From the IMG/VR virus record IMGVR_UViG_3300020204_000006: 64,000 bases of DNA. One strand, given 5' to 3'. Source of the DNA: a virus. Below, in pieces: positions 30,722 to 53,807 of this stretch. Each line of letters starts with the position of its first letter. Positions within the stretch are counted from its first letter, which is position 1. The notes under the pieces were generated by a model. It was given only the letters and a program-made list of their open reading frames with translations, did not search any database and was not told where the DNA came from. The translations under genes were made by a program, and so were the position numbers.

Positions 30722-30729
30722 TATAAATA
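30722..30729 (+). promoter_or_regulatory. TATAAATA, T4-type late-promoter-like element upstream of ORF9
   Basis: Exact octamer in the AT-rich intergenic gap 30666-30777; chance occurrence is plausible at this AT content. Confidence 0.35.
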
Positions 30730-36700: not shown

Positions 36701-38844
36701 TAAATATTAAAATACTTTCAGCCACAAAGAATGTCACGATTACTGACAGAATAAGCTATCTTTCTAAATATTTGATATCTGGAGTAAGAAGACAAGATGG
36801 AGATTATATATGGAGAATAACTCCAAAGCCAGGGGTTAATTTGACAATATCCGGAGGGACTGAGCTTTTTGATACTTCTTCTAACGGCGGTTTTGCAAAT
36901 GTCGGCAGATGGTTTTTGACATCTAGCTCATCTCCTCCTTCGGTTTTTGTAGATTCTAGTAGTTCTAGCTCATCTAGCAGCAGCAGCGGTTCCAGCAGTA
37001 GCAGTAACTCCAGCAGTAGCAGTCAGTCCAGCAGTAGCAGCGGTTCCAGCAGTAGTAGCGGTTCCAGCAGTAGTAGCGGTTCCAGCAGTAGTAGCGGTTC
37101 CAGCAGTAGTAGCGGTTCCAGCAGTAGTAGCGGTTCCAGCAGTAGTAGCGGTTCCAGCAGTAGTAGCGGTTCCAGCAGTAGTGGCAGTTCCAGCAGTAGT
37201 AGCAGCAGTCGTTCTAGTAGTTCTAGCTCATCTAGTAGCAGCAGTCGTTCCAGTAGTAGCAGTAATTCAAGCAGTAGTAGCAATTCCAGCAGCAGTAGCT
37301 TGTTGAGTAGTTCAAGTTCGACAAGCAGTAGTTCAAGTAGTTCATTGTATATGGAATATGACCCGTATTCCGGACCTCAGCCAAGAATCACGGTGGTGCA
37401 AATTGAATCTAGTGAGCCCTCTTTTGTAAACGAAGAATTTGGAATAAATTATTTTAAGGGTGTTTTTGGTGGAGCTGTTTATGATTCTGTTGAAATTAAT
37501 TTTAGAGATATTGTAAAAGTAATGGCAAAAGCAGATTCTATAAACGGTATTATTAAATTTATTGGAAATACTAAATTTGCCAAATACGACAAATTAACTA
37601 TTTCTCTTTCTAGTGTTTCTCATAATAATTCAGGAGATGTTGATCATATAACTATAGAAGATTCTTTTGAGGGGGTAAATGCGGGATTACCATCTTTATT
37701 GAGTAGGGTTGTTCATTCTAATATAAATTTATCTTCAGCTTTCATAGTATCATCTGAATTTGGTAGTGACTTTGAGGGCTTCCAGTCTTTCATAGTTTCA
37801 AATAATGATCCCAATAAAATAAGTTATGATACCTCTGATTTCAATAAAAAACAACTATTTTCTTCATCTGAATTTAGTGTAAATGAAAACTTTATTAACT
37901 CTATGTTGTTTGATGAAGAGCAAAATTCTGTTCTTCTTGGTGGTAAATTTGGCGTTTACAAATTCTCCTTGGACTCTAAGTATTTGGTGTATGATGTTAG
38001 GTTTATGGGTTCTGTAGACTGCATAAATATATTGCAAACTTCAGTTGAAATAATTGCTGTTTGTTCTGGTGGAATATATGTTTACAGTAAATATAGCAAC
38101 TCAAGTTATGTAATAAGTCTTATGGGTTTTCCGTTTAAGATTTTTGGTGGATTTATAACATCTAAAAATGATCTTGCTGTATTGACTTCTGGTGGAATAT
38201 TTATAAAAAATAAAGATGCCAATCAGATAATTCCTGTCCTACAGGATATAGTTTCTAGTTCAAGTTCTTCTGGTCAGAGTTCTAGCTCTTCTAACTCCTC
38301 AAGTTCTAGTTCTTATAGTAATTTTGTTTCTTTTTACAAAGGCATAGGATATCAAATTAATATGGCTTTTACTGATAAGAATTTGTATTACTCTGGACAA
38401 ATATCTCAATGGGCAAAATCGGAAGGTGTTCTTCCTTCAACTTCAATATCTGACGTTGTAATTTTTGGAAATAATTTATATATATGCACATCTTCTGGTT
38501 TGTATGTTAATAAGCTTTCTGAGATATTTACTCTGAATTTTAAAAAGGTTATTTTAGATGTTAATAACCAAAATTTAAGTATTAATGCATTAGGTGCTTC
38601 TTATTCATTTAATGATGAAGGTGCAAGGGTGGATCAATTAATGCTTGCTGGAGACGAAAAAGGGAAAATATACTCAATTGTTATAAATAATGATGAGCAG
38701 GTAACAAGTACTGTTCAAACAGAGTTTTCAGTTATTCATAAGGTATTAAGAGTGGAAGATGACTGGATTTTATCATCGTATAATCAATTTAAACTACTTA
38801 GTAACGATAAGATATATACCTTGTCTCTTGGGGTAGATGTTTAA
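30778..38844 (+). CDS. ORF9: 2,688-aa modular protein: inactive trypsin-like domain, RCC1 propeller with insertions, two glycosidase-like TIM-barrel domains, 130-aa poly-Ser linker, C-terminal beta-propeller
   Basis: LISNQHVVYSS / VGLLD / GDASS protease-fold motifs; RCC1 units (FKQVDGGYHHSIALREDGTVVCWGENNDGECDVP); DFVSIDNE and YYEMIRHAVLNGA motifs; NLYICTSSGLYV-type blades. Confidence 0.9.
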   Translation: MSVLCRPDGSISFSVSESLLNTSLTQGDIIIFNNRPEGLEFIKEYDCDGFLESNFLNLLSSINISAIIKEIHFDSNHLEVIFISGLEKVSSLLGINNLSFFCPRLNHVYYLSSTLKETCFLSSRNNIWEKRSIYGSPISPNFKVGSGKYNFDNCNFYSFGFESHENQSKSHNNKYVLISNQHVVYSSLDPISFLDGNLFKDQFTCEYDEIYSNSKRENILKKGIYFGQFVFPFEEYSDSNIRSFLNHIKKYQPSLYQNVYDNNTTLSDRIDFFKKLFAPKIVKFYSPKLKRYITRKIVMSLPAENYYREKYGIDHGISGVCVGLLDNPISIYETGIKPVAFHSEESSYLNFSENREVFYFDNHLRLSFAVPSNNFGVFKTKNDMSLMKSKYVDMYDEFGSSYFGELDIGNIVMCKGKSQSIIIGLCNGIENFQGIKGVKSNEICVNFGSDVKVKEFFGNAFKVPNRADPFILYGKSSYGDASSKFDFYRESYLECKNYNIFNQEYMYNFLSDFDYWKINSISEIWDRAFDIPNVHMETDVMEYSTGSRSPVTQRSSSVDTASDENYASISHGYSNVIFYTTRDGTVKYIAGYNANPALPESERNVIGAGIRNITPFSSPYGSFLAGQGGVDLTPPSDLPKCKQVVTGYRNAHALTVNDSIVSWDGTPHQQWKKTSEVFMQQLRYYQQPGRRLEGVKIKKISPGAGFVAVLLTNGEVITYGANESAQMSDVDTVLTPIGIIPLPVRGDNFYIKRWKAYKTWKYGENLSTYLDPLSSPNSCVTQQEIDEEANDDFPDTDSGTNSNWRLYRSAALGCEQHEGSGAIADSPYINGSNIYPPPPVSWSGFLDWSKFTGAPNDYQFSRSTTGDVSSVNFSFGASWTRNSDRIPMTVVYPCTTDPDGECSYISNGYQRPQGHPLESDRPPNSLFGFSGNRYRDVACSRTSIILMTENGNLESWGMNFYYNVTGSGRQFGAFRRMGSGIPGGNSNDAGWSTPGHPRPFPDAPWGDNSAVEVKRLKTTPESLLGIGTGYYISIVIRRDGSIFAWDRNEWGESLPRSNSDGTPGLPSGIFKQVDGGYHHSIALREDGTVVCWGENNDGECDVPSILKNPITSKCVWVCALSRMSFALRDNGDLIGWGNTDEAAMGFKGFTSGSVFNPGEPILLTFADSSSSSSSSSSSSSVSSSSSSSSDLAEGYIVTSSLPGRDATLAELNIIIPSLVQNNIKYSHTLYGSDVDSSSWLGSDPLCCDVNLTIFGQKVQEHISSWSSINTEYNFYYGNPEYVVLNMLHTLGVPVELQEILPIEEDITSGRGLRAFNMLTGLLDTTKSVLPQSSVSQYSYPFLPYFFLPRPDGGDACTWSSRWAGLSLEDYENEKDRLLNLLKNKVASFAPHTDIITTAHYATYSERRAVFFPGIEASTFEWVLNNCRSIIEASQGKPVNVYVSPVIFPGSEYTLESVRQSNFTLPLSQLKSNIEALPKLVVSTPYMERVIFKPMRQAGVKRMHMWMEWRYTHNIARLLPSGSSTFGITDADIYLSRKMINDLFIDQNFRSPIDLSDDSLWNSPSTREEVIRSALSKDIEMANSFRSDGVDGNENAVWAYCWNAPDSTDVNKFERVKPMIWVSGGQRYDIDPRPTIGELSVVVSRLNQLPPGKRTLGLMRYNSSAIWNNPSDFLLGQFKSPWPDNELENMKNDWQSILGDLKSLNAPIDFVSIDNEGKFSAGPAWYDPANSTNLSWIEAIKNDLRYNQSWKGFSSLSSKISPFNIDQIFTFGSTDDYIGYWRGLGHLGAAALNYAIWDPLTAIYPNVGGSNYQGNFVLYGDSFPDTNGHEFAYDNIFGTSSSPALYGSWKNTPPPSGPGSRVISPSDPTHIIRWNGSDPQTPSSPWFAFLIDIQAVRACKRSNEQLQDEPDIEPWIASVSWSGDTAYNYEYKNNKSYYYEMIRHAVLNGAQRFAVWNPFESSSTNSGFLDDVLRDINIKILSATKNVTITDRISYLSKYLISGVRRQDGDYIWRITPKPGVNLTISGGTELFDTSSNGGFANVGRWFLTSSSSPPSVFVDSSSSSSSSSSSGSSSSSNSSSSSQSSSSSGSSSSSGSSSSSGSSSSSGSSSSSGSSSSSGSSSSSGSSSSSGSSSSGSSSSSSSSRSSSSSSSSSSSRSSSSSNSSSSSNSSSSSLLSSSSSTSSSSSSSLYMEYDPYSGPQPRITVVQIESSEPSFVNEEFGINYFKGVFGGAVYDSVEINFRDIVKVMAKADSINGIIKFIGNTKFAKYDKLTISLSSVSHNNSGDVDHITIEDSFEGVNAGLPSLLSRVVHSNINLSSAFIVSSEFGSDFEGFQSFIVSNNDPNKISYDTSDFNKKQLFSSSEFSVNENFINSMLFDEEQNSVLLGGKFGVYKFSLDSKYLVYDVRFMGSVDCINILQTSVEIIAVCSGGIYVYSKYSNSSYVISLMGFPFKIFGGFITSKNDLAVLTSGGIFIKNKDANQIIPVLQDIVSSSSSSGQSSSSSNSSSSSSYSNFVSFYKGIGYQINMAFTDKNLYYSGQISQWAKSEGVLPSTSISDVVIFGNNLYICTSSGLYVNKLSEIFTLNFKKVILDVNNQNLSINALGASYSFNDEGARVDQLMLAGDEKGKIYSIVINNDEQVTSTVQTEFSVIHKVLRVEDDWILSSYNQFKLLSNDKIYTLSLGVDV
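36955..37344 (+). repeat. Poly-Ser linker array (130 aa) in ORF9 with seven perfect GGTTCCAGCAGTAGTAGC units (37042-37167)
   Basis: Direct reading of the sequence. Confidence 0.97.
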
Positions 38845-41800: not shown

Positions 41801-44800
41801 TGAAGCAAATTATCTTTTATATTACGATCAGGGTGTTTACGGGCTTAGAAACGGGTATGAAGATTTTAATTTTGACGGAGGATTTGTCAATTTAACTTCA
41901 TCTGGTTTTGGATATTCTCATGAATTAGGTGCTGATTTATTTAAGAATTTCTATTTCTCTTCTGTTAGCTCTTTATTTGATTCAAATAAAGGCATTATAT
42001 CTGATTTTATATTTTGGTATAAAAATATATCAGAGGATAAACATAAAAAATCATTTACTGATAATTTTATTTATGATTTAATCTTTTCTTATGATTTTAA
42101 TAGTGCATCTTATGATGAATTTGATAAGCCACAGATTGTATCAAATCTTGGTATATCTGAAAACGTAACAAGATACCAAATATTTGAATATCAAAAATAT
42201 ATTGTTCCCAAAATAGAAAGAATAATAAAAGAAAAATCACATGGAAAATATGTGATGAATTCTGGTGATTTTAGATTTGACTGTGGTTTAATAACAACAG
42301 AAAACACTGGCTCTAGAGATGATAATGGTTCTCAAGAATTTATGGTGAATTCTTTGAGGCAACTTACAGAAAGCACTCCTCATGTAAGTTCTTGGGACTC
42401 TTTTGGAAGAAATATTTCATCAATTGGTTCTACAGAATATTACGAGCCAATATTTTTACCTCAATTTTGGTTCGGCAAAAAAGATGGACTATATGATGTT
42501 GTTTTTGAAAGAACAAGAGATATAAGCATATTTAGTTCAAATTATTCTCTTAATAGGTTTGTAAATGATTCTTTACAGATGTATTCTTCTGACGCAAGTA
42601 TTATTACTTTTAAGGTTTTAGGTAAGGATGAAAATAGTGTTAGTCTTATCTCGGAAAAAGATCAGTATGGTTTTATCTTTGGTCTTGGTGTAAAATCAAT
42701 TTCTCTTATTATAGAATCTTACGAGGAGCAGGGTAGTCCAGTTAAAAGCCGCGATGGAGATGGAGAAGAATATGGACCACCAAGTTTTTCACCAGCAATT
42801 GAAAAATATTGGATATGTAATCTTTCAATTGAAATGAATTCCCAAGACTCTCAAAATGATTTTGAGAGAAAATTTGGTAAAATATTTTTTAATAAATTGA
42901 TGGGCAATCTTCATTCAGATGGACTAAAATTCTTCACAAGATGGAAAATAAATAAAAAAGGCGTAGTGTATCCATCTACTTTTCCTGTTAAGTCATTTAA
43001 TCCGTCGTCTTTGTATCACCTTTTAGAGCAAGACGATATTTCTATATTTGATGTAAACAGTAGATATAACGCAAGTATAAGTTTGTGGTCAAACTCTGAA
43101 ATTATGTTTGCGACTAACAGTTATACTTATTCTGCAAAATCTCTTTCCTCTCTTCCTCCGCTGTCTGGTGGAAGTGGTTACTATCCTGTATATAAAAACG
43201 GTCAGGAATTATATCAATTTAATTCAGACCATTCTGGTATAGAATTTATTTCAAATGCTTTAGACTCAAAGCATTACGAAGAACTTAAAAATCATTTTAG
43301 TATATTTGATTCAGAAAATAAAAATACTTTGATGGTTCGTTCTTATTACGGTCTTTTGCCCTTATGGATGTCTAAATATGGTCTTGACGATCCTCAGTTT
43401 AGATATAATACTAGATATAGTGACAAAAGTTTAGAGCTTTCTAGCAAGAACTCTCGTGAATATACTGGTTTTTTGATACATAGTAATTATGGTCGTGGAA
43501 CATCAGCTGCTCAAACTCCATACGAAAGTTATGAAGAATCCGTAGCCAGTCTGATGAAGGTTGCAAAAAATCTTAGTCCCAATAAAGTAATTGTACCATT
43601 TGTTTGTCCAAAAAGCATTGGACAGCACTATTTTATTTCTTGTCTATATCATCCAAAGGAATTTTGTTATTATCTGGTTAGGCCATGGTTTATAGGTAAT
43701 TACCGTGCAGACGCAGTTCACGTTTGGGATTCATATGTATATTATGTAAATTCTTGTTTTTACGATCTTTCTAATTACTCAGAGCCAGCTGGTTTTAGAA
43801 CTGGTATTGAAATGGCTATTTTTAATGGCAACATGCTTTCAATCGATGATGCATGGAATATAAATAACTCCTCATCTTTTGATTGGAACTCGGTTGAAAA
43901 AGGTGGAATGCTTTGGGATAATTACGGCGAAAAGGCTATGATTAATTTGGAATATACTTCTTTAAATGGAAATGATTCCTATTATGAAAAACCAAAAATA
44001 GTCATATTCATTAAAGAAGTAGTGTCGCTTTATTTAAAAGATCTTTACTCTGAGCTAAACAAGCTGCTTCAAAATCCTGAAATTTACGAAAGGCCATCTG
44101 ATAAGTCCATAGGTTATGATGTTCTCTCTTTCTTGAATGGGCTTCTTGTGTCTTGTCAAAATGAACTTAAAGTTGAAATAGTTGGTGGTGGATCTTACTC
44201 ATCTGAAAACTGGGTTGGTTATAAAATAGAATGGTACAAGTCGAAATCATACGTTGATAATCCATATGGTTTTGAGCTTATATACACGGAATCTGGTGCT
44301 GGATTTATTCAATATATATATGCTCCCAGGGCATTAACAGATCTTCTTGCCAATGGAGACGTAATAAAGGCAAAGTTGCATGTTAATACTGGCTACGGTT
44401 TAAATTCTTCATCTACATATGAATGCTCACTATATTTTGATTCCAAAGTTAATAACATAGGAAATTATTTTATACCTAGTTCTGTCGTTAACACAAGAGA
44501 AAAGAACATTTTAAAAATCGTAAATTCAGAACAAATAGCAATGCTTGTTGATCCCCCAAGCAGCTCAAGCAGTTCAAGTGGTTCATTTAACAATTCTTCT
44601 AGTTCTAGTTCTATTTCTTTATCTTCATCTTCTTCTAGCTTAAGTTCAAGTTCAAGTTCAAGTTCAAGTTCTTTGCTTTATATTCCTGGTGGTGATTTGC
44701 CAGAACCTTCTTCTTCTTTAGATTATGAGGTTTGGGCTGCGCATTTTACTGGAAACATGTTTGATGCAAATAATCCAGAATACGGAAGATTTGGTCATCC

Positions 44801-47800
44801 AAATTACAAGTTACTTTCCATAGTTCCTGGAATAAGTATTTTTGGAACCAATTATAATGGCCATAGAATGCCATCAGATACTAATTCTGCCTCCATAACA
44901 AGCGCTAATTTTCAACAATTTAAAAATGAAATAACCTCCGTACCATCAGGAAGAAGGGTGATGATTCCTTATTATTGGTTCCCTGATATTGGTTGCTATA
45001 CAAAACTGCACGATCAATATTATAGAAATACTTCCGATGGTGTAGTTTATGATGACGGCACAAGACAAGACAGAATATTAACTTGCTGGCTTGATAATAA
45101 TTCAAATGATTGCGCTGATTCTTTTAGGTCATTTTTACAAAGATGCATCAATGATGGATTTAATTTTGATTACATAATGAATGATCAGGAAACTCAAGAC
45201 AACTATTGGATAGATGGCAGAAACTCGTATCCAAATTGGCTTGATGATACAGATGGAGATGGATATAGAAACGATCCATCCCCGGGGATTGACAGCGCTG
45301 GATTTATGCACGATGCAAGACGTGTTTCGGCAATCATGTCTGATTCAAGATTTACCAGCTATGTCAATCCGTATACTGGTAAAACTTTTGCTCAAGAATT
45401 TATGGAAAATTACCAGGCTCTTAGAGTAAGGTCTGGATTATCTGAGGATTCAAGATCGTGGCAGGAAATTTTGGCTCCATTTGCTAACGCAAATTCCCCA
45501 ATGCATTTTAGGCCTTCTAGTTTCTATTGGCAAGCCTATGGCTGTTCCAATGGGTGCTCTCCTGACGGAATAACAATTAACGGTCTTGTTCATCCAGAGG
45601 GGTACAATCTTTTTTTCCATGCCTTGCCTGCTTGGCGTGCCGCCGCTGACTCTTGGCATTTTAATGTGTATTGGAAGAGATTTAGAGACGTGCTTGGTGA
45701 GTTTGCTGAGTTTTCAAATACAATTCACATGGAATATACTGCCTCTGCAATAAATTCTGAAGAAGCAAAATTTTTCCAACAAAGTAACCTCGAAATAAGT
45801 ATGCAGCCAGCTTTGGCTGATTCATGGACTGGTTCGAGCAGATACTATGCTGGATTTTTTAATATCATATTCCCTAATTGGGCTTTGCCTCCTGACGGAG
45901 AATATAATAATGCGAAAGAATATTGCAGCGGTTATGTTTTAACTCCGCAAAATGAAGATGAGTTGTTTAACTGGTGTGGATATTTAGTTCTGGATTACAA
46001 GGGGCCGTCTGGTGAATCTAATTTAATAAGGTATCCTGAAACTGATGTTTCTCCAAATGCCACCGGTTTTGATCAGTCTCTAGTTAAGAGATGGTATACT
46101 GAATACTGCTTTAAACATTTAGTTAATATTATAAAACTTGAAAGGGTGCATTTAAGAAGCGATCCCAATCATTGGGAAAAGTTTGTTCCCTGGATAGGAT
46201 ATCAGGGATATTTTCAGGCTCGTTGGTATAATGGCGATGTTGCGTATTATCATGAAATGATAAGACACACCATATTAAATGGCGCTAGGATTTTCCAAAT
46301 ATTTGAAAGCAATTATATACCAGATTCTTGCAGAATAATACATAAAATCCTTGACGAATGGAGATCTATAAGTGGAAATTCAAGAGCACAGCCATGTTCT
46401 AATGCATTTGGAGACGCATCTCAGCCTGTAGACAGGATGGTTCTTAAAGATGTATTTGAAAACGTATTAATAAGTGGAGGGAGACTTGTTGAACATCCAG
46501 ATTGGTATATTTGGAGAATATCTGTTGCTCCAAAGCACTTTAATTCTGATGGAATTTGTATTTTAAGAAAGCAGATTCAGGACCAGGATCTACCAGATAC
46601 AATTATTATAGATTCAAATACTTCAAGAAATAATGATGACTCGTCTAGAAGAGGAGTATGGGTTCAAAGAAATGTGCCTGGTATGCCTATTTATTCTGTT
46701 GCAACTTTTAGCTCTAGTTCATCCAGTAGTTCTAGCTCATCTAGTAGTAGCAGCGTATCTAGCTCCAGTTCGAGTAATTCAAGTAGTAGCAGTGTTTCAA
46801 GTAGCAGCAGTGTTTCTAGCAGTTCGATCAGTAGCAGTAGCAGTGAATCTAGTAGTAGCAGTGAATCTAGTAGTTCCAGCAATTCCAGCAGTAGCAGCAA
46901 TTCCAGCAGTAGCAGTGGTTCCAGCAGTAGCAGCGATTCCAGCAGTAGTAGCGATTCCAGCAGTAGCAGCAATTCCAGCAGTAGCAGCCAGTCCAGCAGT
47001 AGTAGCCAGTCCAGCAGTAGCAGCCAGTCCAGCAGTAGTAGTCAGTCCAGTAGTAGCAGTGGTTCCAGTAGTAGCAGCGGTTCCAGTAGTAGTAGCGATT
47101 CCAGCAGTAGCAGCAATTCCAGCAGTAGCAGTGGTTCCAGCAGTAGCAGCCAGTCCAGCAGTAGCAGCCAGTCCAGCAGTAGCAGTGATTCCAGTAGTAG
47201 CAGCGGTTCCAGCAGTAGCAGCCAGTCCAGCAGTAGCAGCGATTCCAGCAGTAGCAGCAATTCCAGCAGTAGCAGTAGCAGTGGTTCCAGCAGTAGCAGC
47301 CATTCCAGCAGTAGCAGTGGTTCCAGTAGTAGCAACTCTAGTAGTAGCAGTAGTTCTTGCTCTGCTCCTAATTGGCCAGATTTTGTGGCATATTCTTTCT
47401 CAAATATATTTCCTAATGCTCCTTCTGTCCAAGTTTGTTACGCTGATAATTACACCATATCCTACTCAACATCTGCTCAATATATTCTTCAGTATAGGGT
47501 TACAGGTTCACCTGTTCAGGAATGGACTGACCATATAGATAATCCTGGTAGTTATACTGATGTTCTTAGTACTCAAAGTATAAATGTTTCTAATCCTTTT
47601 GAATATCTAACTTTTGCATTAAGATCTACGTCTCCTGTCACTTCATCTACCTCTTTTGTAGTGCAGGTATCTATTTTAGATCCCGTAGAAATGACTGTTG
47701 AAGTTGTTGATTCTTTTACTGTTACTGTAGACAATTCTGGTAGTTCTTCATCTTCAAGTTCTTTATCCAGCAGTAGCAGCCAGTCCAGTAGTTCTAGCAA

Positions 47801-50800
47801 TTCCAGCAGCAGTAGTCATTCCAGCAGTAGCAGCCAGTCCAGCAGTAGTAGCGGTTCCAGCAGTAGCAGTCAGTCCAGCAGTAGCAGCAACTCCAGCAGT
47901 AGTAGTCAGTCCAGCAGTAGCAGTGGTTCCAGTAGTAGCAGTGGTTCCAGCAGTAGTAGTCAGTCCAGCAGTAGTAGTGAATCTAGTAGTTCCAGTAACT
48001 CCAGTAGTAGCAGCCAGTCCAGCAGTAGCAGCAACTCCAGCAGTAGCAGTGGTTCTAGTAGTAGCAGCAACTCCAGCAGTAGCAGCGGTTCCAGTAGCAG
48101 TAGCAACTCCAGCAGTAGCAGTCGGTCCAGCAGTAGCAGTGGTTCCAGTAGTAGTAGCCAATCAAGTAGTTCCAGTAACTCCAGTAGTAGCAGTCAGTCC
48201 AGCAGTTCTAGCAACTCCAGCAGTAGCAGTCGGTCCAGCAGTAGCAGCGGTTCCAGCAGTAGTAGTCAGTCCAGCAGTAGCAGTCGGTCCAGCAGTAGCA
48301 GCCAGTCCAGCAGTAGTAGTCAGTCCAGCAGTAGCAGCGGTTCTAGTAGTAGTAGTCAGTCCAGTAGTAGTAGTTTGTCTAGTAGTTCTTCTTCAAATAC
48401 TGATCCTCTTTTTGCGTACAGGTCTTTTGGTGGAGACCCAACCGATACGCAATGGACTAATAATTTTGCATTTAACGGGAATGTAAGTAAATCAGATTCT
48501 CAGCTTACATCAGATTATATAATTTCTTTTAATAGTACATCGCTGCCATTTGCGAGATCTTATGAAAGGTACGTACATGCTCTTGTAAAAAGTTGGTACA
48601 GAGGCGGTCAAACAAATACGACATATTTTAATTTGGCAGTAAAAATGATTCAAGCCTCTCTTAACTATAGGCCAAACATCACAGATGGAACTGGTAATTT
48701 ACCTGGTCAATTGAAGATTAATGAGGCATCAGAATTTGATCTTCACAACACTATAACTCTTGATGGTGCTAAATCTGCAATAAATTATCATTTAAGAGAT
48801 GCCTGCTTGCATTTTGCGCAGCTTGGAATACTAACTAGGAATGCATCTGCCATACGTAAAGCAAGTTCTATAATATCTGGTTTTGCTGATAAAATACGTG
48901 ACAATTGGCCAGTTTGGAACCCTTATTTTGGTGTTGGATTCGGAACCGGAAGATTGCCAAGTAGCCAAAATATTCCTGCTTCTTATCAATTGGAAAGTTC
49001 TTCTGGTATTTGGGGAGGATGGATTTATTACGATCTAAATCTTGCAATGCCACTTGTTCAAGCATGGTCTCTAATAAAAGACAATCCAAATTGCACTTCC
49101 GATAAAGATTGGGTTAAGTCTATGTTTAATCTTTTCTTGCAGTTCCAAACCTGGAGAAGACAGGCCGCTCCGCCTACTACCCCTTGGAGATCAAATGGCC
49201 AGCCTGATTATTCAAACCAAGATATGAGACTCATACAGGGCTATCTTGAATTTGGAATTTTACTTGAAGAGCCTGAGCTTGTTCACTATGGTGTTTGGTA
49301 TCTTAAAAATATTTACAGAGGTTTGTTTACTTCAGATGGTTGGTGGCACGAGGGAGCCCCAGCTTATCAGGATGACTTGCAAAGAGGTCTTAATTGGGCA
49401 ATAATGGATTTCCCTGGATGGGAAAATTCTACATATAGATATAGTGACCCACCAGGATTTATTGCTTCTGCAATTGATGGTACTAGATTTGACGACATCA
49501 ACTTATATGATTTGGTGAAAAGACAAACAGACAGGTCCAATCGGGTTTTCTCGCATATTCAACTGTTTAATGGATTCCCTCTTTGTAGAGGAGATTCTAA
49601 TTGGAATCAGGCAGATTCAATTCAAGTAAGAAATACTCTTACTATAGAAGACAGCCAGATTATATATCCTGCTTCGTCTAAGCTTTTTGGCACTGGATGT
49701 TTAGCAATTTTAGGAAATGAAAAAGGAAGTAGTTCTCAAAAGGATATTGGCACTATAGTAAGTCTTGAATATGGTTCTGCCCAAACTCACAGTCATGCAG
49801 ACTCTCTTCATTTAAATGTTTTTTCCAAGAATCAAGAAGTAATGAGCGAAACTCAATACAGACCTGTTTCTGGAGATACAATATCAAGTAGAGCTTGGCA
49901 CTCTTGTACTGCATCTCATAATACTGTTGTTGTCAATCAGATTAGTCAAAATACAACTGGCTCTTTTGGTGACAATAGAAGAACTAAAAACGCTCTTGAC
50001 GAAATTAATGGCATGCCCGATTGGGCATGGAGATTCTATAGCGGACAAAGAACTACTAATTATGGCAAATTGAGACTATATAATAAAGATTATTCTAAAG
50101 TCAAGGTCATGGAAGTAGATGCGGAAAAGTCGTATAATGCAGTTGTATCTCCCATGACTAAATACAGAAGAACTGTCTCTCTTGTTGAGATAGATACAGA
50201 AGACAATTATATAGTTGATATATTTAGAGTTTCTGGTGGGACACAGCATGATTACATGTTGCACAGCTGCTTACAGACAGACTATTCTGCAACAATTAGT
50301 GCAGGTGTAATGCCATCTTCTGTTAGCGGTCAATTATTTCCATCGGGAACCGCTGAAAATGGCATGGATCGTATTAACAAGAGTGAATCATTCTTGACTA
50401 GCAATAATTGGAATGTAGAGTTCTTGCCATCTGCTTCATCTGAAAACTGGAAACAATATACATATATGATTGGTCAGTCTGGTTCAGAAATAATAAAGTG
50501 TACCGCACCAAGTATGAGAATTGCAAACCAGACAAGGCCATTTATTTGCGTAAGACGCACTGCATCAGAAAGTGTATTTGTAGCAGTTCATCATGCAGTT
50601 AAAAAATCAAATTCAAGTAAAATATCAAGCATACAGTCTTTGCCGAGTACAAATCCTAATGTGATTGCTTTAAAAATTAATTTGACAAATGGTAGAAGTG
50701 ATACTGTAATATCTGGAGAGGGTCCAACCGATAGCGCTTTAATAGATACTAAAATACAATTTACTGGTTCATTCGCTCACGTTGCAGAGCATTCTAATTC

Positions 50801-53696
50801 AATGTCTGCAGATAGATGGTTATATTTGGTAGACGGTAGCAATCTTTCTCTTGGGTCAGATAGTATATCTGAAAATGTTTCATATAGTGGCACTATATCT
50901 CATGTATATAGAATAGAAGATGGAGATATAGAAAACTCTTTTGAAACAAATGCTGTGCTTCCTAGTTGGAAGGATTTCCAAAACTATACGTTACTTATAG
51001 ATCCTCAGGGTTTACCAAGATGGGCCTACAGTATATCTTCCGTAAGATTTGGCTCTTCAACTCGATTTATAAGAACAGGCGATGAGCCTGGAATAAAGAT
51101 AGAATCAGATACTATTGGTTCCTATTGCAAGCAAAAGTATTTTCCTAATTGGGGAGAGCGTGGATCTATGCAGTTTAAGATTCCTGGTTCTGCACTTCTT
51201 ATGATTGCCCCAAGTTCAACCAGTAGCTCTAGCAGCAATTCCAGTAGTAGTTCTTTCTTTGACCAGCTTGCTGCTGATGTAGATTCGATTATAAGGTTAA
51301 GATTCCAAAATGCTCCCAGTACAGGTTCTTGCACCAATTCACCATTAGATTCTGATATTATGTCCTTGTACAACAATCCACATAATTCAACTTTTACTTG
51401 GTCTGAACTTAATTGGGACAACTTGTTTGTTAATACAAATCCCAATTCCACAGTTACTGTTAATGGAAGTTCGGTTGCTGTTGACACAACGATTCGTTCT
51501 TTAATTTCTCAATATGTTGGTAACAATTTTAATCCAAGACATGGAGCGACAAATATTCTTGGTTTCCCTAATGGCAGTCCTCCCGTTGCAAATACATGTC
51601 ATCCAAGAAGTAGATATGTAAGAGTATTTACTATAGAAGATATCCCTAAGGGTTGTTGCAGTGGGGTTGCATGGGACAATCTAACTCCTAGTTGCAAATG
51701 TATATCTTCTGGTACGCTTGATGGATGTGGATCAAGCTCTACTACATCAACTCCAGATTTGTGTTCATGTAATGATAAGAGAATAAAGAAGGCTCTTTCT
51801 GAACATGACAATTCTTGTGGACATTGGATAAGAACTACTGGTGTTCAAACTGCTTTTGCTTATAGGGCGGTGAAAAAAAGAATAGAATATGGCGGATCAA
51901 TTGGTAGCGGGGCATCTGCTGTGTCTGGTGCTGCTGCGCAGCAACAGCTTTTAACTGACATATTTGATCGCTGCATGGACATATTGCGTGAAATAAACAA
52001 GTATACTACAAGTCCTAATGGCCAGGGCTCTTATGATATGATGAGAAATGGATGGACTATTGCTAACTGCTCAAATGATCCTAATGTAAATGACGGTCCT
52101 TATCTTGGTACAGCATGGGGAACTAATGGGCTAGTTAGGATGCTTGATCTTATTGGTCCAGATGTTCAGCAGGCAGATCCAGTTTTGTATAGTAGGCTTG
52201 GAGACCAGCTTAGGTCTGAAGTTCTTCAAATGGTTGATGATTGGAAAAATAATCGTGCATGGTACATGAAAGGACATTTGGGTACAAATCCTTGTGGATC
52301 AGGAAGATCAAACACCAATCAGTGGATTGAGCCTGTTTGTGCCCTTGTAAATGCTTCACTTTTCCTGATTGATAGATTTGGTCAAACTGATTTAAAACCC
52401 GCATATAACATGGGAGTTTGTCTTTTAGGTTTTTCCGTAAAAAATCAATTTACAGATGGTGGTTTTGCTGAAGGTTGGGGTTATGCAGTACAGTGTGCCC
52501 CAGAAATGTTCTTTACTATAGAAATGATGAATAAATCTGGTGATTTTAGGATAAGAGATGCCGCGTGGTCACGTAATTTTGTTAATAATTATTGGAATTG
52601 GTTTACTAATCATATGTTGCCAGGAAATTATATAGCTAACTATTCTGATTGCAGGGCTCAACAGGTGGCTTCTTGGGCACTTAGTACGCCATATAGGGAT
52701 CTTCCATTCTCTTCAGAAGCTTGTGATCAAGAAAACAAGATAATTGCTTATAATAATTTTACATTTTTATTCCCTGGTAATCCTGGAAGTATAGATGGGA
52801 TAAAAGGCTATTCTGGTAAAAAGGCGCTAACTGCACTTAATCAGGGCTACGATTTAAATAATCCTATATTGAATATGAGTAATTTTAGAAACTATGCAGA
52901 TTCAAGAATCGTATTTTGGAGAACAGGAAGAGCTAAGCCTTCGGATATAAATAGTTCTTCTGCTAGTTCTCATTTTGCTTTATGGGTTAAGGGAGGTAGC
53001 TTAAAAGATGGGCATAAGCACAGGGATGAAGGTCAATTTGCAATATACTGTGGCAAGAAATCAATTATTCTTGAATCTGGCATGGATTATGATATAGCTC
53101 CCGCACAGGCCGAGGCTTTGGCTAATGAGAGAGGACATAACATATTGCAGATCGGAGCAAAAGCAAGAGGTACTCTTGTTGATTGTCCCATGACGGTTTC
53201 CGCACTAAGTCAGACAAATGGCGATGTTTTTATAAATCTAAATGACTCTTATATACCTGGTGTAATAACTTCATGCAACAGAAGACTTCAATGGTCTCAT
53301 TCTGGAATATTAACTAATCCACTATCGGTTACTGTTTCCGACAGTGTGGTGTTTGCTGCAGCAGTACTTTCTACCCAGGAAATATTTAGATTCCATACTG
53401 GAAGATCTACAGATTCATCTGGTTCTACAAATTCTCTTACTGTTTCTGGCTCTGGTACATCTTGGAATATTTCTTGGCCAGGTGTTACAATGTCAATATC
53501 ATCAAATATACCTATAGTTGTTGCTGATAGTTTTGCGATGGATTTTACTCAACTTTTGCCTCCCACTCAATCTAGTATAAATAATCCAAGGTATCACAGA
53601 ATTATTTCAATAAAACCAGTAAATAATATATCAGCAAATTCTTCGCTTACTTTAACTACAAGTATTATTGCAAATCATGATGTCAATGGTGGATAA
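38844..53696 (+). CDS. ORF10: 4,950-aa putative virion depolymerase/receptor-binding protein: trypsin-like fold, glycosidase-like TIM barrels, two ~220-aa poly-Ser arrays, two heparinase II/III-like polysaccharide lyase modules
   Basis: TAATG overlap with ORF9. Lyase motifs GWWHEGAPAY, HSHADSLHL, SHNTVVVN and YRRTVSLV...YIVDIFRVSGG; second set GGFAEGWGY, GHKHRDEGQF, GHNILQI. Confidence 0.92.
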   Translation: MALTINNNPSKYDLWTYEGSGRIPIGPNYNNIFILNGIQNIFCVSANSRSTASVPNGPPASFNCNGSLVNSSGSINGPFVIAISPHCAVGSLKNFISAGQPIKFWYKHANGGSGGFITRTASNIRFSSSPSRPYEWVAGGYYEGTSSLYSGSFSDVLVYFFDEPLPVDADFAVLPIFNDYKMWRKNSGVFPYNPGVIVDHDSRMVPGSVFMNFTEIYDSDQIGGVTPGASDVRITGIDGYFLSDLNSISDKKYKENYLKYLDEDASYYDNIFRIIKGGATDSTSPIFEVDFESNCLVLYSLSTILTNNRNPSWIKSQNNYDCLCGIRKGNLVSVNMFGLDYFDRSENPYIRLGKNFFNTSRLEGDPFIPGEPNVIPSDLYKIPVKSIDSEYINKFYLGFDVLDYNQESRFSKAYSLGYSHYFYLDNYFDSSDPFDGPFIPNGPGVPFQLRNSFNVSGTINYFSQKYPSTWDQNSSKNLVIGIYGYSGSGSYGSFTVVSDFKNAINQDSFSGFDLVIGSASFKEAKSKIIKYISDIKAALPNMKIGWCDLVGYSNWYPPYVYGDLPESEKSWLSVNDSQKSLIFNCWDKIWEGVIEKLDFISFSFNDNVNRNSNAGSDPALWHEVNRKRAEIAIEYVKRYCYRKNIRCPKILPCISSCTGENIFENCGTSNLFSHANRPISDVEFIERVVSPCVDYGVDGFILKNNSIFEEYYDGWINPNININSRRKLSYNYICNSASSIDLSDCSYYNIINNYSLCSASQNAQNVINSIFSYVENKMSVLSRYLVDFEAFGSGSSSLKNFSLITEIGMNPWDTSAEQLEKYSLLNYDLFNSTPSVDSHMNYTSSVLADSFIENPIYSNGVDWDPDNTNISIYSYDSTYSAGNLVKFFDTKTYRWCVFQATQSVSVGDYPGRSNYFSTDGSGNREYYRSNINIRWKCADINFLYSHYSLVPSINKYYENNKLSLVKGRSKYKAYDLEVPWTFLPVHEANYLLYYDQGVYGLRNGYEDFNFDGGFVNLTSSGFGYSHELGADLFKNFYFSSVSSLFDSNKGIISDFIFWYKNISEDKHKKSFTDNFIYDLIFSYDFNSASYDEFDKPQIVSNLGISENVTRYQIFEYQKYIVPKIERIIKEKSHGKYVMNSGDFRFDCGLITTENTGSRDDNGSQEFMVNSLRQLTESTPHVSSWDSFGRNISSIGSTEYYEPIFLPQFWFGKKDGLYDVVFERTRDISIFSSNYSLNRFVNDSLQMYSSDASIITFKVLGKDENSVSLISEKDQYGFIFGLGVKSISLIIESYEEQGSPVKSRDGDGEEYGPPSFSPAIEKYWICNLSIEMNSQDSQNDFERKFGKIFFNKLMGNLHSDGLKFFTRWKINKKGVVYPSTFPVKSFNPSSLYHLLEQDDISIFDVNSRYNASISLWSNSEIMFATNSYTYSAKSLSSLPPLSGGSGYYPVYKNGQELYQFNSDHSGIEFISNALDSKHYEELKNHFSIFDSENKNTLMVRSYYGLLPLWMSKYGLDDPQFRYNTRYSDKSLELSSKNSREYTGFLIHSNYGRGTSAAQTPYESYEESVASLMKVAKNLSPNKVIVPFVCPKSIGQHYFISCLYHPKEFCYYLVRPWFIGNYRADAVHVWDSYVYYVNSCFYDLSNYSEPAGFRTGIEMAIFNGNMLSIDDAWNINNSSSFDWNSVEKGGMLWDNYGEKAMINLEYTSLNGNDSYYEKPKIVIFIKEVVSLYLKDLYSELNKLLQNPEIYERPSDKSIGYDVLSFLNGLLVSCQNELKVEIVGGGSYSSENWVGYKIEWYKSKSYVDNPYGFELIYTESGAGFIQYIYAPRALTDLLANGDVIKAKLHVNTGYGLNSSSTYECSLYFDSKVNNIGNYFIPSSVVNTREKNILKIVNSEQIAMLVDPPSSSSSSSGSFNNSSSSSSISLSSSSSSLSSSSSSSSSSLLYIPGGDLPEPSSSLDYEVWAAHFTGNMFDANNPEYGRFGHPNYKLLSIVPGISIFGTNYNGHRMPSDTNSASITSANFQQFKNEITSVPSGRRVMIPYYWFPDIGCYTKLHDQYYRNTSDGVVYDDGTRQDRILTCWLDNNSNDCADSFRSFLQRCINDGFNFDYIMNDQETQDNYWIDGRNSYPNWLDDTDGDGYRNDPSPGIDSAGFMHDARRVSAIMSDSRFTSYVNPYTGKTFAQEFMENYQALRVRSGLSEDSRSWQEILAPFANANSPMHFRPSSFYWQAYGCSNGCSPDGITINGLVHPEGYNLFFHALPAWRAAADSWHFNVYWKRFRDVLGEFAEFSNTIHMEYTASAINSEEAKFFQQSNLEISMQPALADSWTGSSRYYAGFFNIIFPNWALPPDGEYNNAKEYCSGYVLTPQNEDELFNWCGYLVLDYKGPSGESNLIRYPETDVSPNATGFDQSLVKRWYTEYCFKHLVNIIKLERVHLRSDPNHWEKFVPWIGYQGYFQARWYNGDVAYYHEMIRHTILNGARIFQIFESNYIPDSCRIIHKILDEWRSISGNSRAQPCSNAFGDASQPVDRMVLKDVFENVLISGGRLVEHPDWYIWRISVAPKHFNSDGICILRKQIQDQDLPDTIIIDSNTSRNNDDSSRRGVWVQRNVPGMPIYSVATFSSSSSSSSSSSSSSSVSSSSSSNSSSSSVSSSSSVSSSSISSSSSESSSSSESSSSSNSSSSSNSSSSSGSSSSSDSSSSSDSSSSSNSSSSSQSSSSSQSSSSSQSSSSSQSSSSSGSSSSSGSSSSSDSSSSSNSSSSSGSSSSSQSSSSSQSSSSSDSSSSSGSSSSSQSSSSSDSSSSSNSSSSSSSGSSSSSHSSSSSGSSSSNSSSSSSSCSAPNWPDFVAYSFSNIFPNAPSVQVCYADNYTISYSTSAQYILQYRVTGSPVQEWTDHIDNPGSYTDVLSTQSINVSNPFEYLTFALRSTSPVTSSTSFVVQVSILDPVEMTVEVVDSFTVTVDNSGSSSSSSSLSSSSSQSSSSSNSSSSSHSSSSSQSSSSSGSSSSSQSSSSSNSSSSSQSSSSSGSSSSSGSSSSSQSSSSSESSSSSNSSSSSQSSSSSNSSSSSGSSSSSNSSSSSGSSSSSNSSSSSRSSSSSGSSSSSQSSSSSNSSSSSQSSSSSNSSSSSRSSSSSGSSSSSQSSSSSRSSSSSQSSSSSQSSSSSGSSSSSQSSSSSLSSSSSSNTDPLFAYRSFGGDPTDTQWTNNFAFNGNVSKSDSQLTSDYIISFNSTSLPFARSYERYVHALVKSWYRGGQTNTTYFNLAVKMIQASLNYRPNITDGTGNLPGQLKINEASEFDLHNTITLDGAKSAINYHLRDACLHFAQLGILTRNASAIRKASSIISGFADKIRDNWPVWNPYFGVGFGTGRLPSSQNIPASYQLESSSGIWGGWIYYDLNLAMPLVQAWSLIKDNPNCTSDKDWVKSMFNLFLQFQTWRRQAAPPTTPWRSNGQPDYSNQDMRLIQGYLEFGILLEEPELVHYGVWYLKNIYRGLFTSDGWWHEGAPAYQDDLQRGLNWAIMDFPGWENSTYRYSDPPGFIASAIDGTRFDDINLYDLVKRQTDRSNRVFSHIQLFNGFPLCRGDSNWNQADSIQVRNTLTIEDSQIIYPASSKLFGTGCLAILGNEKGSSSQKDIGTIVSLEYGSAQTHSHADSLHLNVFSKNQEVMSETQYRPVSGDTISSRAWHSCTASHNTVVVNQISQNTTGSFGDNRRTKNALDEINGMPDWAWRFYSGQRTTNYGKLRLYNKDYSKVKVMEVDAEKSYNAVVSPMTKYRRTVSLVEIDTEDNYIVDIFRVSGGTQHDYMLHSCLQTDYSATISAGVMPSSVSGQLFPSGTAENGMDRINKSESFLTSNNWNVEFLPSASSENWKQYTYMIGQSGSEIIKCTAPSMRIANQTRPFICVRRTASESVFVAVHHAVKKSNSSKISSIQSLPSTNPNVIALKINLTNGRSDTVISGEGPTDSALIDTKIQFTGSFAHVAEHSNSMSADRWLYLVDGSNLSLGSDSISENVSYSGTISHVYRIEDGDIENSFETNAVLPSWKDFQNYTLLIDPQGLPRWAYSISSVRFGSSTRFIRTGDEPGIKIESDTIGSYCKQKYFPNWGERGSMQFKIPGSALLMIAPSSTSSSSSNSSSSSFFDQLAADVDSIIRLRFQNAPSTGSCTNSPLDSDIMSLYNNPHNSTFTWSELNWDNLFVNTNPNSTVTVNGSSVAVDTTIRSLISQYVGNNFNPRHGATNILGFPNGSPPVANTCHPRSRYVRVFTIEDIPKGCCSGVAWDNLTPSCKCISSGTLDGCGSSSTTSTPDLCSCNDKRIKKALSEHDNSCGHWIRTTGVQTAFAYRAVKKRIEYGGSIGSGASAVSGAAAQQQLLTDIFDRCMDILREINKYTTSPNGQGSYDMMRNGWTIANCSNDPNVNDGPYLGTAWGTNGLVRMLDLIGPDVQQADPVLYSRLGDQLRSEVLQMVDDWKNNRAWYMKGHLGTNPCGSGRSNTNQWIEPVCALVNASLFLIDRFGQTDLKPAYNMGVCLLGFSVKNQFTDGGFAEGWGYAVQCAPEMFFTIEMMNKSGDFRIRDAAWSRNFVNNYWNWFTNHMLPGNYIANYSDCRAQQVASWALSTPYRDLPFSSEACDQENKIIAYNNFTFLFPGNPGSIDGIKGYSGKKALTALNQGYDLNNPILNMSNFRNYADSRIVFWRTGRAKPSDINSSSASSHFALWVKGGSLKDGHKHRDEGQFAIYCGKKSIILESGMDYDIAPAQAEALANERGHNILQIGAKARGTLVDCPMTVSALSQTNGDVFINLNDSYIPGVITSCNRRLQWSHSGILTNPLSVTVSDSVVFAAAVLSTQEIFRFHTGRSTDSSGSTNSLTVSGSGTSWNISWPGVTMSISSNIPIVVADSFAMDFTQLLPPTQSSINNPRYHRIISIKPVNNISANSSLTLTTSIIANHDVNGG
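46710..47357 (+). repeat. Poly-Ser hexad array A (216 aa) in ORF10
   Basis: (G/D/N/Q/E/H)SSSSS units on an NNN-TCC-AGY-AGT-AGY-AGY codon template. Confidence 0.97.
47736..48395 (+). repeat. Poly-Ser hexad array B (220 aa) in ORF10
   Basis: (Q/N/G/H/E/R)SSSSS units on the same codon template. Confidence 0.97.
48400..51220 (+). other. Heparinase II/III-like polysaccharide lyase module 1 (helical toroid plus beta-sandwich) in ORF10
   Basis: HEGAPAY at 49347-49367, HSHAD at 49788-49802, SHNTV near 49915. Confidence 0.82.
51260..53693 (+). other. Heparinase II/III-like polysaccharide lyase module 2 in ORF10
   Basis: NQWIEPVCAL, GGFAEGWGY at 52458-52484, NYSDC, GHKHRD at 53010-53027, GHNILQIG. 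Confidence 0.8.
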
Positions 53697-53799: not shown

Positions 53800-53807
53800 T
53801 ATAAATA
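53800..53807 (+). promoter_or_regulatory. TATAAATA late-promoter-like element 3 nt upstream of the ORF11 start (possible leaderless mRNA)
   Basis: TTTTTTTTGTATAAATATATATG; no Shine-Dalgarno sequence. Confidence 0.45.

Follow-up and report, generated by a model that had tools for sequence, protein, structure and literature searches.

Phage depolymerases have almost always been described as separate trimeric beta-helix tailspikes. The subject of this work is a single protein of 4,950 residues (P0001), encoded at positions 38844-53696 of a 64,000-nucleotide stretch of viral DNA, IMG/VR record IMGVR_UViG_3300020204_000006, which is called the window below. A purpose like the one proposed here is served in the Klebsiella jumbo phages phiKp24, PhiK64-1 and RaK2, where several glycan specificities are gathered at the baseplate by many separate proteins, mostly trimeric beta-helices, in a branched complex (PMC13282480, PMC6872550). 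Toroid folds account for 11 of the 984 phage depolymerases in DepoScope, about 1% of the predicted folds (PMC11326577). Lyases of the clan that concerns us act by Tyr/His beta-elimination, with an Asn as the charge neutralizer (PMC11848413).

It is proposed, with a probability of about 0.6, that the 4,950-residue protein is a late-expressed structural or accessory component of a huge T4-related phage, which carries its modules on serine tethers and uses its lyases to open the glycan layer of the host. The orphan N-terminal 1,900 residues would anchor the chain, most likely at the periphery of the baseplate, and flexible, perhaps glycosylated Ser tethers would present in series several modules that fold independently, namely module B, a small domain between two X-Ser5 tracts of ~217 residues, and two different lyases. 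Both lyases are predicted to cleave uronic-acid polymers by Tyr/His beta-elimination; such cleavage would open the exopolysaccharide or capsule layer and allow the phage to reach the cell surface.

Organization of the gene product

The gene is a single unbroken frame of 4,950 codons on the plus strand, as claimed in a first-pass annotation of this DNA. The G+C content of the window around it is 30-42%, and stop codons are frequent in DNA so rich in A+T, so that an open frame of this length is not a product of chance. The preceding gene, for a 2,688-residue protein with RCC1 repeats (30778-38844), ends in a TAA that overlaps the ATG of this one (TAATG); it and all parts of the protein described below are likewise on the plus strand. 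No family was found for the intact protein in whole-protein scans of Pfam or PHROGs. Pfam was also run on isolated segments, and both lyases were matched only in that way; eight segments gave zero matches in PHROGs. Internal duplication was considered and rejected, none being found. All modules are under purifying selection, the ratio of nonsynonymous to synonymous substitution rates (dN/dS) being 0.21-0.43 across them (0.27 for the N-terminal region A in comparison with the relative L002, 0.21 for lyase 1 and 0.32-0.34 for lyase 2). Their G+C content at third codon positions is near that of the backbone; the modules are therefore not recent imports.

The two predicted lyases

The first-pass annotation placed two heparinase II/III-type lyases at the C-terminal end, and profile searches and Foldseek searches with AlphaFold models agree in assigning both to that clan, Pfam passing its cut-off for lyase 1 and falling just short of it for lyase 2; profiles of the Hepar_II_III/alginate-lyase type do match. 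The motifs it quoted, HEGAPAY, HSHAD, AEGWGY and GHKHRD, lie at residues 3502, 3649, 4542 and 4723, and alignment bears out its statement that His/Tyr-type motifs are kept, the catalytic Tyr and His being present in both modules. Family profiles of the two regions reached solved enzymes of polysaccharide lyase family 17 (PL17) for lyase 1 (E = 2.6e-30) and of PL33 for lyase 2 (E = 6.5e-32). We regard lyases 1 and 2 as two different uronate-type lyase modules that retain the catalytic Tyr and His.

Lyase 1 comprises residues 3191-4120 (48414-51203). The isolated segment matches Hepar_II_III_C (PF07940) with 31.9 bits (E = 1.2e-07), above the Pfam gathering cut-off of 24 bits, and 1,068 homologues were found when 1.8 billion representative proteins were searched exhaustively with HMMER, the best of them being stand-alone proteins of ~850-950 residues that align over almost the whole module. 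A single-sequence search of the PDB gave nothing meaningful for lyase 1. A profile built from 36 sequences retrieved the PL17 structure 9irq with the E-value given above, together with PL17 structures 7bjt, 4nei and 8bdd and, beyond PL17, PL40 Uly1040, PL39 Dp0100, PL15 Atu3025 and PL12 heparinase III. The AlphaFold model (predicted local distance difference test, pLDDT, 88; predicted template modelling score, pTM, 0.90) found PL17 first in Foldseek (~E 1e-22), followed by PL40, PL39, PL12, PL21 and PL15; the modelled lyase 1 has the (alpha/alpha)6 toroid plus beta-sheet fold of the lyase clan.

Lyase 1 shares with the PL17 enzymes Alg17c (4nei/4ojz), AlgL17 (9irq) and the Zobellia enzyme (7bjt) the two-domain fold, an aligned Asn, the catalytic Tyr, and the GHxHxD and HNT motifs of the metal site. 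Its N268 (N3458 of the whole protein) aligns with N201 of Alg17c and is kept in 35 of the 36 sequences, while Y318 (Y3508, within HEGAPAY), which aligns with the catalytic Y258, is kept in all 36. The H459-x-H461-x-D463 stretch (H3649, H3651 and D3653), facing GHGHFD of Alg17c, is conserved in 36, 35 and 34 of 36 sequences, respectively, and H502 (H3692) of the HNT motif, facing H464 in AHNT of Alg17c, in 34. Assignment to CAZy PL17 proper was nevertheless rejected: a Gln replaces His202 of the Asn201-His202 pair and identity to the PL17 structures is only 11-14%, and because of these two features lyase 1 is filed as a related, unassigned family of the same clan. Its other neighbours are the PL40 ulvan lyase Uly1040 (9vtk) and PL39 Dp0100 (6jp4); unlike the enzymes of all three families, lyase 1 has an additional C-terminal beta-rich region of ~190 residues and lies inside a giant phage protein without a signal peptide.

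In a FastTree phylogeny lyase 1 groups with homologues L001, P0003 and P0017 (support 100), and in the clade that encloses this group every other named member is from Planctomycetota. P0017, a 790-residue fragment, shows another fusion partner for the lyase 1 family: the C-terminal part of its lyase 1 homologue (51% identity) runs into RCC1 repeats that resemble those of the 2,541- and 2,688-residue proteins of the window.

Lyase 2 occupies residues 4140-4950 (51261-53693), with the PL33/PL35-like part beginning after ~170 residues. For this module a single-sequence PDB search gave no match, a word-index search returned only one fragment, 75% identical, and a scan of IMG/VR found no relatives. 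Its language-model neighbours (score 0.96) all belong to Hepar_II_III_C, alginate-lyase or DUF4962 clusters. A whole-genome search identified a homologue in a Lentisphaerae metagenome-assembled genome (MAG), L027, at E = 2.7e-37 over residues 260-807, and matches are present in 18 of 401 genomes of the phylum of that MAG. Thirteen of the 16 rows of the resulting lyase 2 alignment match Hepar_II_III_C at E <= 1e-3 (best 1e-13), and the 16-row profile retrieved PL33 BtPL33HA with the E-value given above, in addition to PL35 GAGases, a chondroitinase and PL15. PL33 and PL35 were also the best Foldseek hits of the lyase 2 model (~E 1e-14, target template modelling score 0.6-0.65), from which a PL33/PL35-like toroid plus beta-sheet fold is predicted.

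The likeness of lyase 2 to PL33 (BtPL33HA, BT4410, 8r6z/8r70; PMC11848413) and to the PL35 GAGases (8khv, 8khw, 9o3q; PMC12088678) lies in the fold and, for PL33, also in the equivalents of Tyr291, His444 and Tyr470, which mutagenesis has identified as the catalytic apparatus (PMC11848413). Hidden Markov model (HMM) alignment places Y408 (Y4547, within AEGWGY) at position 291 of 8r6z_B, H585 (H4724, within GHKHRD) at H444 and Y610 (Y4749) at Y470; H4726, D4728 and H4765 are further key residues of the module. In the 16-row alignment the conservation of Y408 and H585 is 90% or more, while N353 (N4492) aligns in 15 rows. Unlike PL33, the lyase 2 family has Asn-Gln-Trp in place of Asn-Asn-Trp: the invariant N238 of PL33 aligns with Q354 (Q4493), and the conserved Asn stands one residue earlier. 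Lyase 2 further differs from PL33 and PL35 in its low identity (11-14%) and in an additional Cys-rich N-terminal part of ~170-260 residues. The Cys-rich stretch itself, with several CxC and CC pairs (~51621-51800, residues 4260-4320), is conserved in L002-L004, has no family match and is absent from the AlphaFold model.

The two lyases are not the twins that the first-pass annotation took them for. No mutual similarity was detected by BLASTP, HMM comparison or hhalign, and descent by duplication was rejected, nothing being common to the two beyond a short HxHxD stretch. As judged from these comparisons they represent two different families within one fold clan, and two unlike families fit the idea of two specificities, also put forward in that annotation, better than a duplication would.

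It is rather improbable that the lyase modules have little or no catalytic activity and serve as glycan-binding domains in receptor recognition instead of as depolymerases. The Gln at the position of PL17 His202 in lyase 1, the Asn-Gln-Trp of lyase 2 and a dN/dS of 0.2-0.34, relaxed for an enzyme, would suit such a role. However, both modules conserve the catalytic Tyr with its partner His, as well as the His and Asp residues of the metal site, and the same substitutions occur in bacterial homologues that bear signal peptides and are presumably working enzymes. We retain lyases predicted to be active as the preferred reading. Lyase 1 has its affinity with Planctomycetota enzymes, and lyase 2 has relatives in Lentisphaerae-type genomes. 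The locus points to a putative host in Planctomycetota or the Planctomycetota-Verrucomicrobia-Chlamydiae (PVC) group. To our knowledge, few phages of Planctomycetota and the PVC group are known.

Probable phage origin and possible baseplate context

The large open reading frames (ORFs) of the window are all on one strand, with ends that abut or overlap. None of the 11 window proteins tested has a signal-peptide-like N-terminus, as against 26 of 35 stand-alone lyase 1 homologues examined with the same heuristic. A cellular, secreted gene product was named in the first-pass annotation as the finding that would speak against its reading; what we find is a gene without a signal peptide in phage-like surroundings. 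The link to the baseplate comes from IMG/VR contig L001. Residues 1676-2048 of the upstream 2,688-residue protein match the C-terminal part of a 2,359-residue gp7-like wedge protein of that contig (E = 4e-22), and an 884-residue lyase 1 homologue (42% identity; 38.1 bits against Hepar_II_III_C) follows directly after the gp7-like gene. The order of genes in L001 is gp6-like/gp7-like, the lyase 1 homologue, then gp8-like and DUF4815.

The second set of phage relatives belongs to module B (residues 1951-2613; 44694-46682), a member of an uncharacterised family whose other representatives are mainly separate phage proteins from T4-like viral contigs. Its homologues have 713-931 residues and 39-52% identity, and in six IMG/VR contigs their neighbours are genes of T4 type (Rad50-like, RNase H, clamp loader) and one for a collagen-repeat protein. 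In two contigs (L057:12088-14109 and L058:3429-6956) a stand-alone module B homologue is immediately followed by a protein of collagen-triple-helix repeats, an arrangement that hints at a fibre formed by the two.

A T4 late-promoter consensus word, TATAAATA, is found at 30722-30729 (plus strand) in the intergenic gap 49 nucleotides before the ATG of the upstream gene. The word occurs 29 times in the window against 13 +/- 3.4 expected, with 20 copies on the plus strand, and both intergenic gaps contain it, the second copy lying at 53800-53807 in front of a 3,396-residue ORF. As a motif, the copy at 30722-30729 is a candidate for the late promoter of a two-gene unit made up of the upstream gene and the gene under study.

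That the window is bacterial, and that the gene encodes a giant cell-surface or secreted carbohydrate-active protein of an AT-rich bacterium, is very unlikely. Giant RCC1, Kelch, fn3, LamG and multi-lyase proteins do occur in bacteria too, among them the protein P0127 discussed below, and no protein tested had a PHROG match. Against this stand the absence of signal peptides from all 11 proteins, the one-strand arrangement with overlapping stops and starts, and the occurrence of the nearest relatives of both lyase 1 and module B in IMG/VR contigs with T4-type genes.

A phage gene need not encode a virion protein. The product could instead be a soluble multi-enzyme that is freed at lysis and loosens exopolysaccharide or biofilm, aiding the escape and spread of progeny. 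The missing signal peptide, which would make release dependent on lysis, is compatible with this, as is the finding that residues 1-1900 contain no recognisable domain for attachment to a baseplate or fibre; moreover, the IMG/VR homologues of module B adjoin replication genes and not tail genes. On the other hand, the start codon overlaps the stop codon of a giant gene whose product is related to a gp7-like wedge protein, the stand-alone lyase 1 homologue of L001 lies inside a baseplate gene block, and a free enzyme has little use for a non-enzymatic N-terminus of 1,900 residues and tethers of ~217 residues. We consider a soluble enzyme unlikely and continue to favour a virion-associated protein.

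Several observations weigh against the proposal as a whole. Neither a hallmark virion gene nor a baseplate family was found in the 64-kb window with Pfam and PHROGs, and for that reason the assignment to the baseplate depends on the gene order of a distant contig; support for a phage origin and for the baseplate association is indirect. At the level of the enzymes, the position of Alg17c H202, a functionally important residue of PL17 that is replaced by Q269 in lyase 1, varies between Met, Leu, Thr and Gln in the family, and lyase 2 on its own scores 22.4 bits (E = 1e-4) against Hepar_II_III_C, just below the cut-off. The AlphaFold model of lyase 2 is of moderate quality (pLDDT 66, pTM 0.71), with the first ~170 residues unmodelled, and the tree that joins lyase 1 to Planctomycetota enzymes is a FastTree tree with a midpoint root. 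Finally, the order module B, Ser tract 1, domain C, Ser tract 2 is documented in the window only, the second long-form record, L003, starting inside Ser tract 2.

The giant neighbours (1-7740, 30778-38844 and 53811-64000) contain RCC1 propellers, LamG, Kelch and partial vWA domains according to Pfam, and seven neighbouring proteins gave nothing in PHROGs. The entire 64 kb is a single block of same-strand genes for very large proteins with several domains.

Serine tracts and allelic forms

The first-pass annotation counted two serine tracts of 216 and 220 residues, which is almost exact. Ser tract 1 (residues 2623-2838; 46710-47357) has 216 residues and Ser tract 2 (residues 2967-3184; 47742-48395) has 218, with 183 Ser in each, amounting to ~434 linker residues in total. 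Between them lies the small, unassigned inter-tract domain C (47358-47741), whose core comprises residues 2847-2958. Two shorter tracts are present in addition, one at residues 1906-1943 (44559-44672) between region A and module B, and one at residues 4124-4137 (51213-51254) between the two lyases. The long tracts consist of X-Ser5 units encoded by 18-nucleotide tandem repeats, in which Ser is specified by AGC, AGT and TCC; elsewhere in the gene TCT and TCA are preferred. Similar DNA recurs across three giant genes of the window (2933-3513, 36955-37313, 46710-47357 and 47742-48395), with 70-87% identity over 65-150 nucleotides and exact runs of up to 44 nucleotides; Ser-tract DNA could be a substrate for recombination between these genes.

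The gene exists in a long and a short form. Its only large relative in 5.8 billion protein clusters, P0002, has 3,457 residues and 96% identity and corresponds to the query without residues 2622-4138, that is, without Ser tract 1, domain C, Ser tract 2 and lyase 1. This short allele (3,457-3,480 residues) is present in at least four assemblies; it is represented by P0002, L002, L004 and L005 and by JGI/ENA cluster members, which lie on contigs of up to 115 kb. The junction lies inside serine-coding repeats, the short linker at residues 4124-4137 marking the downstream edge of the missing cassette, and the linker at the junction is ~24 residues long in L002 versus ~57 in L004. The idea that the short allele is an assembler collapse was rejected on account of these two linker lengths in independent assemblies. 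Moreover, Ser tract 1 and the short junction tract share only 15 nucleotides of exact identity, which makes such a collapse unlikely.

The converse, a long form created in assembly by a chimeric join across Ser repeats, with only the 3,457-residue form being natural, is highly improbable. It is true that the exact 4,950-residue sequence is absent from a collection of 15 billion proteins in which the short form occurs several times, and that the open frame proves little, repeat-guided joins being expected to keep the frame. However, both lyases, with Ser tract 2 ahead of them and the short linker between them, recur at ~90% identity in the independent record L003, as does the downstream gene, and the longest exact repeat measures 42 nucleotides between Ser tracts 1 and 2 and 15 between Ser tracts 1 and 3. 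We accordingly treat both alleles as real.

Entire modules are apparently acquired or lost at the Ser tethers. The likeness of serine-coding DNA in two other giant genes, together with the RCC1 fusion of P0017, makes module shuffling at linkers a reasonable inference. Tentatively, and at rather less than even odds, we suggest that the 18-nucleotide Ser repeats double as in-frame recombination joints at which cassettes are added, dropped or swapped within and between giant baseplate proteins, and that the X-Ser5 tracts form extended, possibly O-glycosylated, mucin-like tethers. Were the tethers extended, each enzyme could act tens of nanometres away from the virion; were the repeats recombination joints, they would offer a plug-and-play route to new host-glycan specificities. 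The locus in this way suggests a testable route by which receptor-degrading repertoires may evolve, namely recombination in linker-coding repeats.

The N-terminal regions

For the part ahead of the long Ser tracts, the first-pass annotation had proposed a series of pseudo-protease, TIM barrel, carbohydrate-binding unit, second TIM barrel and glycoside-hydrolase-like domain. This was not confirmed, residues 1-2613 being without a match in Pfam, PHROGs or the PDB. Region A (residues 1-1900; 38844-44543) is an orphan with near-identical relatives only, for which a role in virion attachment and as a shaft is proposed. A sub-threshold match to Peptidase_M10_C is its only Pfam signal; PHROGs, a single-sequence PDB search, IMG/VR and GenBank phages gave no match, and no relative of residues 480-1900 was found in 301 genomes of the phylum of the Planctomycetota MAG.

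The profile of module B has no PDB or Pfam match, and no match to module B was found in 251 genomes of the phylum of the Lentisphaerae MAG; language-model comparison gives a weak lead to glycoside-hydrolase clusters. Module B is a weak paralogue of residues 1864-2018 of the upstream protein (36367-36831; 28% identity over 191 residues, E = 6e-7), and was rejected as a paralogue of region A. The upstream segment is itself related to the C-terminus of the gp7-like wedge protein in L001.

Comparison with known systems

The known kind of system to which the locus belongs is the phage glycan depolymerase, and the layout of serial modules on Ser tethers is a variant of it. The classical tailspike depolymerase, with a trimeric right-handed beta-helix or a beta-propeller as catalytic domain, was considered and set aside: both identified catalytic modules are toroid lyases by fold prediction, and no pectate-lyase or beta-helix family was found in Pfam scans of the protein and its segments. 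The view of the first-pass annotation that the architecture is unfamiliar among depolymerases holds in part. It is upheld for phages by the rarity of the toroid fold and by three negative searches: tblastn with four modules and blastn with the two-lyase region gave no match in 50,697 GenBank phage records, and in a literature search no phage protein with lyases in series was found described. It does not hold for giant serial multi-lyase proteins in general, of which the bacterial P0127 is another. This protein of 4,066 residues resembles that of the window in having two lyase modules of the same clan in one giant chain; unlike it, P0127 is a secreted cellular protein whose two modules are mutual paralogues, and it has no such poly-Ser tethers. 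P0127 has a clear signal peptide, tandem heparinase II/III-like modules at approximately residues 1500-2450 and 2700-3650, and repeat domains.

Closer in sequence are the stand-alone phage homologues (the 884-residue protein of L001, the 892-residue P0003 and, for module B, P0154-P0161 and L054-L059), which have 42-52% identity over the whole module. As in the window protein, signal peptides are absent, and the genes come from T4-like viral contigs. They are, however, single-module genes, whereas the window modules are fused through Ser linkers. The locus offers two new lyase subfamilies and one uncharacterised module family for biochemistry.

Compared with the Klebsiella jumbo phage systems, in which specificities are distributed over separate proteins, the window protein has its modules in series in one chain of 4,950 residues, with poly-Ser tethers and toroid lyases. 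The layout likewise differs from that of separate trimeric tailspikes in that unrelated modules, two predicted toroid lyases among them, are united in one chain of what is probably an uncultivated huge freshwater phage.

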